Notes under the pieces: generated by a model
Seen by the model: the letters and a program-made list of their open reading frames with translations, nothing else
Database searches by the model: none
Told to the model about the DNA's origin: nothing
Shown here: piece after piece, positions 199 to 5,462 of the stretch
Numbering within the stretch: the stretch's first letter is position 1
How the letters are laid out: each line of letters starts with the position of its first letter
From: Candidatus Saccharimonadota bacterium
Lineage (GTDB): Bacteria > Pseudomonadota > Gammaproteobacteria > Enterobacterales > Enterobacteriaceae
Length of the DNA stretch: 5,569 nt
Reading direction: 5' to 3'
Assembly (NCBI GenBank): GCA_036689235.1
Contig: CP144770.1
Location: 1 to 5,569 of the forward strand
Made by a program: the position numbers and the translations under genes

Positions 199-230
199 AT
201 GAATAATAAAAAAAATAAAAATAAAAATAT
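176..230. repeat. Perfect 25-bp direct repeat x2 (176-200 and 206-230, 30-bp period) straddling the repA start codon
   Basis: ATAAAAAAAATAAAAATAAAAATAT is read identically at 176-200 and 206-230. The repA ATG (199-201) overlaps the end of copy 1, and copy 2 encodes part of the N-terminal KKNKNKNI. Both copies contain the 18-nt core AAAAAAAATAAAAATAAA. Confidence 0.8.
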
Positions 231-981
231 TGGATATGCAAATAATTTTTTAACTAGTATATTAATACCATATTCAAATATATCTAAATATTATTTTGAA
301 AGAACTAATAAAAATAGTTCTTTAAAAATTATTTCTGATCCAAATTATGGATTACCATACGGTAAAATACCAAGAATATTAATGATATGATTATGTACTG
401 AAGTTATATTAAAAAAATCTCCAAAAATATATTTAGGAAAAACTCAAAATGAATTTTTTAAAAAATTAGGTTTTATACCTACTAGCGGAAAAAATGGTTC
501 AATAAATAGAATAAAAAATCAGGTTATAAGATTATTTAATTCTAAAATATCAATTATATATAAAAAAAAAAATTTGTATAAATTTAAAAATTTAAATATT
601 ATAAATAATGCTATTTTATTTTGAAAAAAAAGTAATACATTTTGAAAAAATAATATTTTATTATCTAAACAATTTTATGAAAATATAAAAAATAATTCTA
701 TAAAAATAAATTTAAAAATAATAAAAAATACAAGATCATCACTTACTTTAGATATATATATTTGATTAATATGAAAAATTAAAATATTAAAAACAAAAAA
801 ATCTATTACAATATCTTGAAGAAAAATTGAAATACAATTTAGTTTTAGTAATAAAAATTCTAATAAAAAATTATATAATTTTAAAACAAAATTTATAAAA
901 GAATTAAAATATTTTTTTTCATATTACCCAAAAATTAATATAACTTTTTTAAAAAAAGGATTAATAATTAAAAAAAAATAA
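199..981 (+). CDS. repA: Plasmid replication initiator, RepA_C type (Pfam PF04796-like), 260 aa under translation table 4
   Basis: ATG 199 is the first ATG after the in-frame TAA at 121-123. The frame stays open to TAA 979-981 if six in-frame TGA codons (388, 622, 643, 763, 772, 817) are read as Trp. The product contains GLPYGKIPRILMIWLCTEVILKKSPKIYLGKTQNEFFKKLGFIPTSGKNGSINRIKNQVIRLF, then LFW..TFW, then SSLTLDIYIWLIWK and ITISWRKIEIQF. From memory this follows the RepA_C pattern (LPYG..PRLLL.WL.TEA...I.LG.S..EF...LG..TGG..G...R...Q..RLF ... SPLALDLY.WLTYR ... IPW..L..QFG). The TGA codons fall on the conserved Trp positions. The 63-aa ORF in the supplied track is only the N-terminal fragment. 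Confidence 0.85.
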
Positions 982-1275: not shown

Positions 1276-1335
1276 ATGAAAAAAAGTATATATTTAATTT
1301 TAATGAGTATTTTATTTATAAATACAGCTATAGCT
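1276..1335 (+). other. Sec-type signal peptide of the polygalacturonase (predicted cleavage AIA|SG after residue 20)
   Basis: MKKSIYLILMSILFINTAIA has a basic N-region (KK), a hydrophobic core and an A-x-A cleavage motif. The mature N-terminus SGDTRNIKEP..PSSC lines up with the mature start of PehA as I recall it (SDSRTVSEPKTPSSC). Confidence 0.8.
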
Positions 1336-2517
1336 TCTGGAGATACACGTAATATAAAAGAACCTATAATTCCTTCAAGTTGTATAGTTTTAAAAGCTAA
1401 TAATAAAAATAATACTAATGAAATTCAAAAATCAATAGATACTTGTGCTAAACAAAATAAATTAGTTGAATTAAAATCTGATAATAAAAATTTTCATTTC
1501 TATTCAGGTCCAATAAATATACCTTCTAATGGTGGATTATTAATTAATAAAGGAACTATATTATCTGCTATACCCGATCCTAAATTATATGACAATGGAA
1601 ATAACAAATGTGGTAAATTAGACAATTCAGGTAAATCATGTAAACCTTTTATAATTATAAATAATTCTGAAAATAATGGAATATATGGTGAAGGAATTAT
1701 TGATGGTCAAGGTAATTCAATAATGAAAGGTAGTAATAAAACATGGTGGAATTTAGCTAGTGAAGCTCAAAAAAAAAATCAGTCACAAAATGTTCCAAGA
1801 TTAATAATAATAAAAAATTCAAAAAATTTTACTCTTTATAAAATATCATTAAAAAATTCACCTAACTTTCATGTTTCAACAAATAATGTTAATGGACTTA
1901 CAGTATGGAATATAAATATAAATACTCCTGCTGATGCCCGTAATACTGATGGAATAGATCCAGGTTCATCAACTAATGTAACTATAGCCCATTCATATAT
2001 TAGTACTGGAGATGATAATGTAGCTATAAAAGCTTCTAATGGACCTACATCATATGTATCAATATTAAATAATAATTTTGGTAAAGGACATGGAATGTCA
2101 ATAGGTAGCGAAACATTAGGTAAAGTAAATAATATTTTAGTAGATGGTTTGTCAATGAATGGAACAACTAGCGGTTTACGTATTAAAAGTGATATATCAA
2201 AAGGTGGTTTAGTAAATCTAATTACATATAAAAATATATGTATAAAAGATGTAAAAAATCCTATATATATAGATATGTTTTATAATAAAAGTGCTAAAGG
2301 AAATAAAATACCTGAATTTAAAAATATAAATTTTGATTCAGTAAAAATATTAACACCAGGTAATTTTATTTTTAATGGTATAAAAGGAAATAATATTGAA
2401 GTTATATTTTCTAATGTAAGTATAAAAAAAGGCTCTACAATAGTAATGAATAATGTTACTTCTAAAGGTAAATTAGAAGAAAATGCTACTGGAAATATTT
2501 GTCCTACAAGAAAATAA
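1276..2517 (+). CDS. pehA: Secreted endo-polygalacturonase, glycoside hydrolase family 28 (enterobacterial PehA/Peh-1 type), 413 aa
   Basis: The ORF is intact under both code 11 and code 4. All GH28 signature blocks are present: ARNTDGIDP (D225), STGDDNVAIK (D246/D247), GKGHGMSIGSE (H272) and GLRIKS (R302/K304). Long collinear similarity, recalled from memory, to Pectobacterium carotovorum PehA includes EP..PSSC..LKA, FYSGPI.IPS, NSGIYG.G.IDGQG, WW.LA, PRLI.I.KSKNFTLY..SL.NSPNFHV, NGTT.GLRIKSD and PI.ID. There is an N-terminal signal peptide and an AGGA RBS. Confidence 0.97.
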   Translation: MKKSIYLILMSILFINTAIASGDTRNIKEPIIPSSCIVLKANNKNNTNEIQKSIDTCAKQNKLVELKSDNKNFHFYSGPINIPSNGGLLINKGTILSAIPDPKLYDNGNNKCGKLDNSGKSCKPFIIINNSENNGIYGEGIIDGQGNSIMKGSNKTWWNLASEAQKKNQSQNVPRLIIIKNSKNFTLYKISLKNSPNFHVSTNNVNGLTVWNININTPADARNTDGIDPGSSTNVTIAHSYISTGDDNVAIKASNGPTSYVSILNNNFGKGHGMSIGSETLGKVNNILVDGLSMNGTTSGLRIKSDISKGGLVNLITYKNICIKDVKNPIYIDMFYNKSAKGNKIPEFKNINFDSVKILTPGNFIFNGIKGNNIEVIFSNVSIKKGSTIVMNNVTSKGKLEENATGNICPTRK

Positions 2518-2614: not shown

Positions 2615-3424
2615 TTAAAGATATTTTATTGAAGTTTGTCTTATTCCATTTTTACAAAAAATAATAGAATCTATTTTATATATTTTTTTTTTATTTATTA
2701 AATTATTTTTATATAAATAATATTTTTTAGGTGTTACTCATCAACTTATTTTTCTTCTTTGAAAAAAACATAACATATATCCAATATTACTAATATTATT
2801 TATTTCACTTAATAATATAGAAATATTTTTATTTAAAATACAATTAATAAATTGTAATGTTTTATTACTAAATTTAAATTTTTTTATATATAAAGAAATT
2901 AATAAAAAAATTTTATTTTTATAAAAAATTTTAAATAAATTAAATATTTTAAATAAAATAATATTATTTGGAAAACCTAAAATATTTGGATAATTAATAA
3001 AAATTATTTTATCTAATTTATTTAATTTATTTAAATTATAAAAAAATTTTTTATAAAAACTATATCATTTGTAAATATTAGAACACTGATAATTAATATT
3101 TATAAAAACTTTAATTTTTAAAATATTTTTTATATAATTATATATATTATTAATATAATTTATATAATATAAAATATTAATTTTTTTAAAATTATAAAAT
3201 TTAAAATTTAAAGTTAAATTAATATTATTTTTAAAACATATTTTAATTAAATTTAAAAAAAAAATATTATTTATATCTTCATTATATTTTAATAATATTT
3301 TTATATTATTTATATATTTTATATAATTTATAATTTTTTTAAATTTTATTTTTTTATATAAATTATAAATATTTATACCTCTTATAACAGGTAAAATATT
3401 TTTTTTTTTTAATATTTTCTTCAT
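2615..3424 (-). CDS. Hypothetical protein, 269 aa under translation table 4; no family assignable by eye
   Basis: The track ORF 3065-3424 ends at a TGA (+ strand tca 3065-3067). Read as Trp, the frame continues with no TAA or TAG for another 150 codons to TAA (+ strand tta 2615-2617), passing two more TGA codons at 2741-2743 and 2738-2740 (ISWWVTP). I checked every triplet of the extension. An 810-nt open frame is very unlikely by chance in DNA this AT-rich. The start is ATG at 3424-3422, bounded upstream by an in-frame TAA, with no SD. The protein is dominated by I/K/N/F/Y/L, which limits recognition. Confidence 0.55.
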
Positions 3425-3482: not shown

Positions 3483-5462
3483 ATGATAAAAAAAAATTTT
3501 TCAAAATGTTGAATAAAAAATAAAAATATAAATAAAAATAAAATATACAAAATATTTAAAAATATTTATATAAAAAAAAAATATAATTTTATAAAAAATG
3601 AAATAATTTATTTAATAGGAAAAGAAAAAATAAAATTTAAAAATAGAATTAAAGATTCCAAACTTATATTTTTAACAAATAAAAACTTAAAAAATGAAGA
3701 ATTTATAATTAAAAATATAAAAAATAAAATATTTATTTTTTCCAAAAATAAAAATGGATTTTTATATTCTATATATCATTTATTAGAAATTATAAAATTA
3801 AAAAAAATAAATAAAAAAAATATTTACATATATGAAAAACCCAATATAAAATTAAGAATTATACAACATCTAGATAATTTAGATGGATCAATAGATAAAG
3901 GATATTCTGGAAATTCAATTTTCTTTTTTAAAAATAATATTAATTATAATTTTAATAGAATAATATATTATTGTAGACTATTATGTAGTATTAAAATAAA
4001 TAATATATGTATTAACAATTTTGATGTAAATATACCATCAACTTTTTTAATAACAAAAAATTGATTAATTCAATTATATGAAATATATAAAATATTATAT
4101 AAATATAATATTAAAATGTTTATATCAGTTAATTATCAAAGTCCTTTGATATTAGGTAAATTAAATACATTTGATCCATTAAATAAAAAAGTTATAAAAT
4201 GATGAGAAAATAAAATAGAAGAAATATATTCATACATACCTAAACTTGGAGGAATATTAATAAAAACAGATTCAAAATATAATAAAGGACCTTTATATTA
4301 TAAAAGAAATCACATAGAAGGATGTAAAAATATAGCAAAAAATTTAAAATATTTTAAAGGAATTTTAATATGAAAATGTGATATATATAAAAAACAAAAT
4401 TGAAGAAATAAGAATAAAGATAAAATATTAAATAATTATAAATATTTTAGTAAATTAAATAATAAATTACCAAATAATTTAATTTTACAAATTAATAATC
4501 CTATAGGATATCAAATAAGAGAACCAGTATCTCCTTTATTAGGAAGTATGAATAATACATCTCAAATATTAGAATTACAGATGAATCAAGAATTTACTGG
4601 ACAACAAATAGATTTATGTTGATTACCACCTCAATGAAAAAATATACTTAATTTTGATACACATTATTATAAAAATAAAAAATCTAAAATAAAAAAAATA
4701 ATTTCAGGAAAATTACATAAAAATAATAAATACTATGGAATATCAGTAATTTCTAATATAGGAAATAATTATTATTGAACTAAAAATTATTTATCACAAT
4801 GTAATATATTTAGTTATGGAAAAATATTATGAAATTTAAATATTAATTTAAATAATTTATTAAAAGATTGAATTAAATTATCATTAAGTAACAATAATAA
4901 AATAATAAAAAAAATAAGAAAAATAATTTTTAATAGCTGAAAAAATTATGAAAGATACACTACACCATTAGGATTAGGAGGTATGGTAGATCCAAAATCA
5001 AATTATAAATGTAATATAGATGGATACGAATATATAAATTCAGGTATATATCATAATTCAAATAGATATAGTATAGGATATAATAGAACTTTAAGTGGAT
5101 CAAAATTTACAAAACAATATTTAAATAAAAATTTTATAAAATTTAATAATATAAATAAATGCCCAGAAGATTTAATATTATTTTTTCATAATTTATCATA
5201 TAGTCATTTTTTAAAAAAATATAAATGTTCAATAATACAATATATATATAATTCTCATTTTAAAGGTGTTAAAAATATATATAAATGAATAAAATTATGA
5301 AAAAAAACAAAATTTTATATAAATAAAAATATATTTAAAAATGTTAAAAAAAAACTAAAGAAACAATTTAAAAATTCTATTGAATGAAGAGATAAAATAA
5401 ATACATATTTTTATAGAAAATCAGGTATAAAAGATAAATTTAATAGAAAAATATATGAATAA
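3483..5462 (+). CDS. aguA: GH67 alpha-glucuronidase homolog, 659 aa under translation table 4; the active site appears degenerate (see findings)
   Basis: From ATG 3483 to TAA 5460-5462 the frame is open when 15 in-frame TGA codons are read as Trp (3510, 4062, 4200, 4203, 4371, 4401, 4620, 4635, 4776, 4830, 4869, 4938, 5286, 5298, 5385). I translated codon by codon. It is collinear with Geobacillus stearothermophilus AguA as I recall it: LRIIQHLDNLDGSIDKGYSGNSIFF vs [39 protein letters not shown] vs YIPDFGGFVVKADS; IREPVSPLLGSM vs VREPVSPLFGAM; NQEFTGQQ vs TQEYTGQQ; PPQWKNILNFDT vs IPQWKEVLDFDT; SWKNYERYTTPLGLGGMV vs SWRIYENYTSPLGVGWMV; CPEDLILFFH vs CPDELLLFFH; and the C-terminus [26 protein letters not shown] vs [26 protein letters not shown]. 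At least 11 of the 15 TGA codons align with Trp in that enzyme. There is no signal peptide. The 101-aa track ORF 4983-5288 is an internal fragment. Confidence 0.92.

Follow-up and report, generated by a model that had tools for sequence, protein, structure and literature searches.

What keeps a gene open over its full length once the residues on which its product would depend for catalysis are gone? This question is raised by the window studied here, the whole 5569-base stretch of contig CP144770.1 shown above, which carries a homolog of the alpha-glucuronidases of glycoside hydrolase family 67 (GH67). Over its whole length and at ~83% identity, the window matches small plasmids that Candidatus Stammera capleta carries in Chelymorpha beetles, and it is the enzyme plasmid of this foregut symbiont of tortoise beetles, from a host of the Mesomphaliini type. 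An earlier reading of the letters alone (the sequence-only reading) had noticed that the GH67 homolog lacks two of the three catalytic carboxylates of its family, and had left three options: a relic caught before pseudogenisation, a pseudoenzyme, or an enzyme of altered mechanism or substrate. Based on the analyses described below, we consider it likely that the protein is a GH67-fold pseudoenzyme, kept for a role independent of the GH67 active site.

Catalytic residues of the GH67 homolog

The GH67 gene makes up 36% of the 5.5-kb plasmid. Its frame runs from an ATG at 3483 to a TAA at 5459-5461 and includes 15 TGA codons read as tryptophan; the window, with a GC content of 5-26%, yields sensible genes only when TGA is read in this way (genetic code 4). 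The encoded protein is 100% identical to one from GCA_015142155.1 (contig JADDOK010000003.1). Its Pfam matches lie far above the gathering scores and place it in GH67. A phmmer search against all PDB chains connects it to AguA of Geobacillus stearothermophilus (E=1e-163) and to GlcA67A of Cellvibrio japonicus (E=1e-90), and it shares about 41% identity with the Klebsiella alpha-glucuronidase. An AlphaFold2 model (predicted local distance difference test 91.7, predicted template modelling score 0.92) has three domains with a central (beta/alpha)8 barrel. Foldseek superposes this model on the AguA structures 1k9d and 1mqq with a template modelling score of 0.94 and a root-mean-square deviation of 2.0-2.4 A over about 685 columns. 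The N-terminal domain (PF03648) was not detected by Pfam in the window protein, yet it is modelled and superposable on AguA. Judging from the model, the three-domain GH67 fold is preserved, and the sole dip in confidence inside the barrel is the loop in which the aspartate at AguA position 364 is replaced by glycine (D364G).

We take Glu285 of AguA (Glu292 of GlcA67A) to be the general acid, carried on a mobile loop. Asp364 and Glu392 (Asp365 and Glu393 of GlcA67A) are presumably the pair that activates the nucleophilic water. PDB mutant entries exist for E285N, E386Q and E292A, which is consistent with these roles. The columns were located with three alignments, namely phmmer to the PDB chains, MAFFT with 27 orthologs and MAFFT with 55 database proteins, and the features concerned are as follows.

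3483..5461, plus strand: GH67 homolog, 659 codons plus TAA (PF07488 E=2.5e-102, PF07477 E=2.4e-63)
4275..4277, plus strand: Lys265 (AAA), in the column of AguA Glu285 and GlcA67A Glu292 (all three alignments)
4506..4508, plus strand: Gly342 (GGA), in the column of AguA Asp364 (phmmer and MAFFT)
4572..4574, plus strand: Glu364 (GAA), equal to AguA Glu386 and retained (GAA in 28/28 Stammera sequences, E in 33/33 other GH67s)
4590..4592, plus strand: Glu370 (GAA), equal to AguA Glu392, the only survivor of the three catalytic carboxylates (phmmer and MAFFT)

Thus, the window protein has Glu392 of a functional GH67 enzyme, and it has neither the general acid Glu nor Asp364, with no D or E anywhere in the loop at the Asp364 column. 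Asp283, Glu285, Asp364, Glu386 and Glu392 are invariant in 33/33 non-redundant GH67s from outside Stammera (AguA, Klebsiella, Halanaerobiales and others), and in the second alignment the catalytic columns read E/D/E in 32/32 non-Stammera sequences. The PDB entry 1k9e, the E285N mutant, has N in the column where the window has K265. The residue following Glu370 is F in the window, at AguA Y393.

These results bear out most of what the sequence-only reading had claimed about the gene. Its coordinates and codons for Lys265, Gly342 and Glu370 proved exact on direct inspection, and the 659-codon frame is open under code 4. The placement of Lys265 at the general-acid column is supported by phmmer and by both MAFFT alignments. 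The same alignments agree with it that Gly342 occupies the Asp column in a loop free of D and E, and that Glu370 is the third carboxylate. Alignment to the GH67 family and to PDB chains, which it had proposed as a check, found no acidic residue at either lost column. The flanks had been described as free of gaps, and here a correction is needed: the Asp364 segment is gapped, with one residue missing upstream (QI-NNPIG in the window, QIKNGPMD in AguA), although Gly342 stays in the Asp column. Three further changes that it had listed were found again in the alignment, HWDN to HLDN (W150L), IWRC to IWKC (R318K) and QIKNGP to QINNP (K359N with loss of G361).

The losses extend beyond the carboxylates. 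We defined 100 columns that are at least 97% invariant among 33 non-Stammera GH67s; the window keeps 77 of them and has lost 23, including W150L, E158D, N201D, R318K, K359N, W520G, H527N and W540S. Several of these changes are listed here.

3870..3872, plus strand: Leu130 (CTA) for the invariant Trp150 of the 4-O-methyl pocket (alignment)
4374..4376, plus strand: Lys298 (AAA) for the invariant Arg318 (alignment; AAA in 19/23 of the carboxylate-lacking clade described below)
4494..4496, plus strand: Asn338 for the invariant Lys359, followed by a one-residue deletion of Gly361 (phmmer and MAFFT)
5040..5042, plus strand: Ser520 for the invariant Trp540 (alignment), with Gly500 for Trp520 and Asn507 for His527 nearby

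In BhGlcA67 the 4-O-methyl pocket is formed by W152, E160, N201, V202, N203 and K283, which are fully conserved in characterised GH67s (PMC8056927). AguA numbering equals BhGlcA67 numbering minus 2, and on this basis three of the six pocket residues are changed in the window (W150L, E158D, N201D), while N199 and K281 are kept. From the model, we infer that the substitutions sit at the C-terminal ends of barrel strands 1, 2, 4, 5 and 6, which would be the active-site face.

Distribution of the loss among Stammera symbionts

GH67 is carried by 33 Stammera plasmids in PLSDB; 27 of these were taken and, together with the window, give 28 sequences. In all 28, code 4 gives an open frame over the full length. 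All three carboxylates are kept in only five, whose hosts, according to plasmid names and published Tables S1 and S2, are Chelobasis perplexa, Alurnus ornatus, Prosopodonta limbata, Prosopodonta dorsata and a Sceloenopla species. The first four of these hispine-symbiont proteins keep 94-96 of the 100 invariant columns and that from Sceloenopla keeps 85, and the Glu285 column is encoded by GAA in all five. It was also observed that in these five the residue two positions ahead of the acid, Asp283 and invariant elsewhere, is Asn (ANSEG as compared with ADSEF).

The remaining 23 sequences, the window among them, lack Glu285, which is replaced by K, N, C, T, I or D or is deleted; in 10 of the 23, the acid loop has a deletion of 6-7 residues. 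Gly occupies the Asp364 column in 20/23, encoded by GGT in 11 and by GGA in 9. Trp520 has likewise become Gly across the clade (GGT in 12, GGA in 6, GGC in 1), and the Gly at 364 and at 520 is maintained through synonymous turnover of GGT and GGA. Glu386 is kept in 23/23 and Glu392 in 20/23, the latter having been lost in three lineages. The same carboxylates are missing from other Stammera proteins in the protein database, among them the copy on the chromosome of the plasmid-less Terpsis symbiont. The only exception is the Cistudinella symbiont (CP043988): its GH67, which also lacks Glu285, carries Asp in the 364 column (GPIDFQ), either because Asp was retained there or because it reverted, and the tree is compatible with both.

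The relationships of these proteins were examined with a BLOSUM62 neighbour-joining tree without support values. In this tree the Stammera GH67s are monophyletic, with the Klebsiella enzyme as their sister. The intact sequences branch off first, as a grade, and a single clade nested within it unites those without carboxylates (Oxychalepus, Notosacantha and every tortoise-beetle tribe). This nested position fits a single ancient loss of the carboxylates. The Sceloenopla plasmid (CP144772, GH67 at 473-2500) represents an intermediate state in which the carboxylates are kept and W150L, R159K, R318N and W540N are already present, which suggests that changes to the substrate pocket preceded the loss of the carboxylates. 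The "hispines" of Table S2 straddle the boundary, with Alurnini, Arescini, Prosopodontini and Sceloenoplini intact and Chalepini and Notosacanthini without carboxylates. The division between intact and lost GH67 may follow monocot versus dicot feeding better than it follows taxonomy. Monocots are described as the main food of hispines, and dicots as that of tortoise beetles (bioRxiv 10.1101/2023.12.12.571295).

No signal peptide was found in any Stammera GH67, intact or not, and all start with M.YSRCWLP like cytoplasmic GH67s; nor was there an obvious uptake system. The nearest free-living relative is found on a Klebsiella contig (5001-9338), where the genes for an MFS_2 sugar transporter and a KdgM-family porin follow immediately downstream of GH67. 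Given these neighbours and the missing signal peptide, the ancestral enzyme would have acted in the cytoplasm on imported oligosaccharides.

Open frames and selection

The frames of the 23 carboxylate-lacking orthologs, which are 645-670 codons long, are all open. Between 11 and 12% of random substitutions in the window gene would give TAA or TAG, and for a synonymous divergence as large as that separating the window from the C. alternans ortholog, the neutral probability of an open frame is <1e-37. When the 274 observed differences were placed at random in a Monte Carlo simulation, 0/20,000 simulated sequences stayed open.

The ratio of nonsynonymous to synonymous substitution (dN/dS, or omega) was estimated by the Nei-Gojobori method (NG86) under code 4 for close pairs; whole-tree pairwise values were dropped as uninformative since, with 96% A/T at third positions, dS saturates near 0.5. 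Within the Chelymorpha-type clade, all of whose members lack both carboxylates, dN/dS is 0.15-0.29 for GH67, 0.14-0.21 for the GH28 polygalacturonase of the same plasmid, 0.22-0.44 for RepA and 0.42-0.74 for ORFx, the fourth gene of the window. Close pairs from other carboxylate-lacking clades give 0.21-0.29 for GH67, and the closest intact pair gives 0.13. Since a third-position GC of 4% may bias the estimator, a neutral calibration was added, in which simulated GH67 evolution with only stops forbidden produced a dN/dS of 1.5-1.7. The real GH67 values are 6-10 times below this calibration. By domain, omega is 0.19 in the M domain (the barrel) and 0.21 in the C domain, former active-site segments included, and is relaxed to 0.37 in the N-terminal domain. 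Taken together, these analyses show that GH67 is kept by purifying selection and is not a pseudogene.

What the retained protein may do

Based on these observations, we propose the following course of events. A cytoplasmic, Klebsiella-like alpha-glucuronidase would have been present in the ancestor of Stammera. On the lineage leading to all tortoise-beetle symbionts and to those of Oxychalepus and Notosacantha, Glu285 would have been lost, with the mobile loop then drifting or being deleted. Asp364 would have changed to Gly in the same lineage, the Gly having apparently been maintained ever since, and much of the -1 subsite would have disappeared as well (in the window, W150L, E158D, N201D, R318K, K359N, W520G and W540S). 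Canonical inverting hydrolysis of (4-O-methyl)glucuronosyl-xylose should thereby be abolished or reduced by orders of magnitude. We infer that the window protein has no alpha-glucuronidase activity because it is missing its proton donor, one of the two residues that activate the water and a large part of the sugar pocket. The barrel and C-terminal domain nevertheless appear to be under purifying selection nearly as strong as that on the essential GH28. Since the whole protein is still selected, its role would be one that does not need the GH67 active site. Our best guess, which is speculative, is that it serves inside the symbiont cell as a structural, scaffolding or binding protein.

Two further observations agree with a retained protein: the C. 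alternans ortholog of GH67 is transcribed and is up-regulated in feeding stages and foregut organs (bioRxiv 10.1101/2023.12.12.571295), and in the Terpsis symbiont the gene persists in a chromosomal cassette without RepA. Several points weigh against a pseudoenzyme. Up-regulation alongside GH28 in feeding stages fits a digestive role. Pseudoenzymes defined by sequence sometimes prove to be active, and with Glu386, Glu392 and 55 of the 100 family-invariant columns still conserved, the pocket may retain part of its chemistry. This analysis turned up no hint of any specific role outside catalysis. The assignment of pocket residues comes from one paper and from positions at strand ends. In addition, NG86 is crude at 4% third-position GC, with dS saturating near 0.5, and the neighbour-joining tree has no support values.

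The rival explanation that survives best, although we think it unlikely, is a neofunctionalised enzyme that acts on a different, perhaps dicot-specific substrate, in which Glu392 and Glu386 would be aided by a non-homologous acid, by substrate-assisted catalysis or by a pocket that is more open. The strong purifying selection that followed loss of the carboxylates is what would be expected of such an enzyme, as is the fixation and maintenance of D364G and W520G together with the retention of E386 and of most E392. The deletion of the acid loop would open the pocket, GH67 is co-expressed with GH28 in feeding stages, and the loss seems to coincide with a host-plant shift. A migrated catalytic carboxylate was considered, but no newly conserved carboxylate exists in the barrel of the carboxylate-lacking clade, where the only acidic column gained is AguA-220. 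Furthermore, the acid loop differs from lineage to lineage in its residue (K, N, C, T or I) or in the deletion described above, and K281, F320, F365, W540 and E158 are variable within the clade; this variation between lineages argues against a common new active site. The three lineages without E392 also speak against new catalysis, as do the missing signal peptide and the lack of an obvious uptake system.

A decaying relic, that is, a non-functional gene not yet disrupted or deleted, is very improbable. It has in its favour the GC content of GH67 (14%, below the 24% of GH28), the disappearance of 23% of the family-invariant residues, the relaxed N-terminal domain and the complete loss of GH67 from some Stammera lineages. 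Such decay is at odds with open frames in 23 independent lineages, with the minute probability of an open frame even on one short path, with the simulations, with an omega several-fold below the neutral calibration, and with retention of the gene in a genome of 216-340 kb and after its move to the chromosome. Comparison of orthologs and their dN/dS had been proposed in the sequence-only reading, and it revealed purifying selection within the carboxylate-lacking clades. The idea of a relic awaiting pseudogenisation is therefore refuted, given that the losses are common to 23 divergent orthologs whose reading frames are open and whose dN/dS is 0.15-0.29 as against ~1.6 under neutrality. Among its three options, the pseudoenzyme is now the best supported, and an altered mechanism or substrate is disfavoured.

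It is even less probable that something other than the protein keeps the frame open, such as transcriptional or translational coupling to the downstream repA or plasmid stability. GH67 does lie directly upstream of repA on the circular plasmid, but the constraint is at the amino-acid level, with nonsynonymous changes far rarer than synonymous ones, and in the Terpsis symbiont a chromosomal cassette beside the enolase gene has no repA and an intact GH67 of 661 aa. An artefact of alignment or sequencing, with the catalytic residues truly present, has almost no chance of being correct: the sequence-only reading had used no database reference and a one-residue indel lies beside the Asp364 column, but phmmer and both MAFFT alignments agree, the loop contains no D or E, and the same state is found in independently assembled genomes and in a database protein 100% identical to that of the window.

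Within the pseudoenzyme reading and its closest rival, a broader scenario can be offered as a tentative and rather doubtful one. The hydrolytic machinery may have been dismantled at an apparent shift from monocot to dicot hosts, and the 2-kb gene's protein kept for tens of millions of years, by a symbiont whose genome is among the smallest known, for a new role in the symbiosis, either non-hydrolytic or based on new chemistry in a remodelled, open pocket.

Other genes of the plasmid

Under table 4, the window holds four genes. The three that accompany GH67 are listed here.

199..981, plus strand: RepA plasmid replication protein (Pfam PF04796 E=9e-23), downstream of GH67 on the circular plasmid
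1276..2517, plus strand: GH28 polygalacturonase (Pfam PF00295 E=8.6e-60), with a signal peptide; used as the internal control
2615..3424, minus strand: ORFx, 269 aa, unannotated and transcribed divergently from GH67; degenerate GH5 homolog without the acid/base Glu

The NTD, GDD, GHG and RIK motifs of GH28 are all intact, unlike the GH67 sites on the same plasmid. The genes also differ in composition. All three Trp codons of GH28 are TGG, with no TGA, whereas all 15 of GH67 are TGA; RepA has 6 TGA and ORFx 3, and neither has TGG. GC content is 24% in GH28, compared with 14% in GH67, 13% in RepA and 7% in ORFx. The codon use and higher GC of GH28 fit a stronger constraint on this gene and possibly reflect a different history. 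In the symbiont of Terpsis quadrimaculata, which has no plasmid, the whole GH28-ORFx-GH67 cassette is chromosomal (CP144768.1, 3852-7986); RepA has been lost and the three frames are intact. The cassette is bordered on one side by a small unannotated open reading frame, downstream of a pseudouridine synthase gene, and on the other by enolase.

ORFx has no match in NCBIfam, where the window GH67 protein has none either, or in Pfam, which was tried down to E<=5. Its open frame is conserved beside GH67 in the symbionts of Mesomphaliini, Terpsis, Ischnocodia and Physonota, and homologs were located in three other loci.

CP144768.1 (Terpsis), 5135-5944: ORFx homolog
locus L003, 1905-2696: ORFx homolog
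locus L032, 4564-5475: ORFx homolog

A profile of seven ORFx orthologs aligns end to end with the GH5 endomannanase of the Chelobasis symbiont plasmid at 56.6 bits, the best of 500 shuffles reaching -12; this endomannanase itself matches PF00150 at E=2e-30. The GH5 acid/base motif ANEW is missing from ORFx and the nucleophile Glu is mostly kept. Although higher than that of GH67, its dN/dS is still below the neutral calibration of ~1.6. ORFx is thus a degenerate GH5 homolog, the second degenerate glycosidase homolog on the plasmid. An AraC-type regulator, considered on account of a C-terminal motif, was rejected, as there was no Pfam match at E<=5 and no such neighbour at the Klebsiella locus. 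GH5 has been described as a late acquisition limited to hispine symbionts (bioRxiv 10.1101/2023.12.12.571295). The relatedness of ORFx to GH5 suggests instead that GH5 is ancestral. If scaffolds of this kind have indeed been re-purposed, the plasmid would carry two re-purposed glycosidases, GH67 and ORFx.

Implications for the symbiosis

Stammera and the tortoise beetles serve as a model for digestive symbiosis, and GH67 has been treated as part of it. The alpha-glucuronidase is listed as a host-beneficial "xylanase" and inferred to be ancestral, and C. alternans is described as depending on "PG and AG" (bioRxiv 10.1101/2023.12.12.571295; PMC12905250). PG+AG and PG+RL configurations have been used to interpret the outcomes of symbiont swaps in papers up to 2026. 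The same two studies estimated selection only for 124 core genes and GH28, inspected catalytic residues only for beetle-encoded GH28, and used thin-layer assays only for polygalacturonase and mannanase (bioRxiv 10.1101/2023.12.12.571295; PMC12905250). In the Stammera literature that was searched, which did not extend to Salem et al. 2020, we found neither a mention of the missing GH67 residues nor an assay of a Stammera GH67 protein. Carboxylate loss is the clade-wide state of a protein that the literature treats as a working digestive enzyme. The term "xylanase" is loose even for the intact orthologs, since GH67 enzymes do no more than trim oligosaccharides at their non-reducing end and leave xylan itself untouched (PMC3879575).

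If the pseudoenzyme reading is correct, the functional assignment of GH67 would be wrong for most of the clade, and the ancestral-state reconstruction of "host-beneficial factors" would mix active and inactive proteins. Under the broader scenario given above, the PG + AG configuration that is held to explain the host dependence of tortoise beetles would need to be reinterpreted. Loss of GH67 function, with the protein intact in the mainly monocot-feeding hispine tribes, would mark a step in host-plant evolution. The gene would also allow a clean test of how a pseudoenzyme is retained when a genome is extremely reduced, here to 0.2-0.3 Mb.

Comparison with known systems

The window protein shares with AguA (1k9d/1mqq), GlcA67A (1gqi) and its nearest relatives in sequence, the enzymes of Klebsiella grimontii and Klebsiella oxytoca, its family, its modelled fold, a cytoplasmic-type N-terminus and Glu386 and Glu392. 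It differs from them in lacking Glu285, Asp364, W150, E158, N201, R318, K359, W520, H527 and W540 and in the one-residue deletion in the Asp364 loop. Unlike the gene at the Klebsiella locus, the window GH67 has no adjacent MFS transporter or KdgM porin. The GH67s of the Alurnus, Chelobasis, Prosopodonta and Sceloenopla symbionts are orthologs on similar small plasmids, with code 4 and the same M.YSRCWLP start. In contrast to the window protein, which has neither E285 nor D364, they keep E285, D364 and E392, and the four of the five that retain nearly all invariant residues are predicted to be active enzymes, the Sceloenopla protein being intermediate.

To our knowledge, no GH67 pseudoenzyme has been described so far. 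The GH18 chitinase-like lectins are pseudoenzymes in which the fold has been selected after loss of catalytic residues, as seems to be the case for GH67 here. A parallel closer to the symbiosis is provided by the GH28 pseudoenzymes encoded by leaf beetles, which are inactive homologs of polygalacturonase (bioRxiv 10.1101/2023.12.12.571295). Both are homologs of plant-cell-wall hydrolases in herbivorous-beetle systems that have been retained with crucial substitutions; the beetle proteins, however, belong to another family and are host-encoded and secreted, whereas GH67 is encoded by the symbiont and has no signal peptide.

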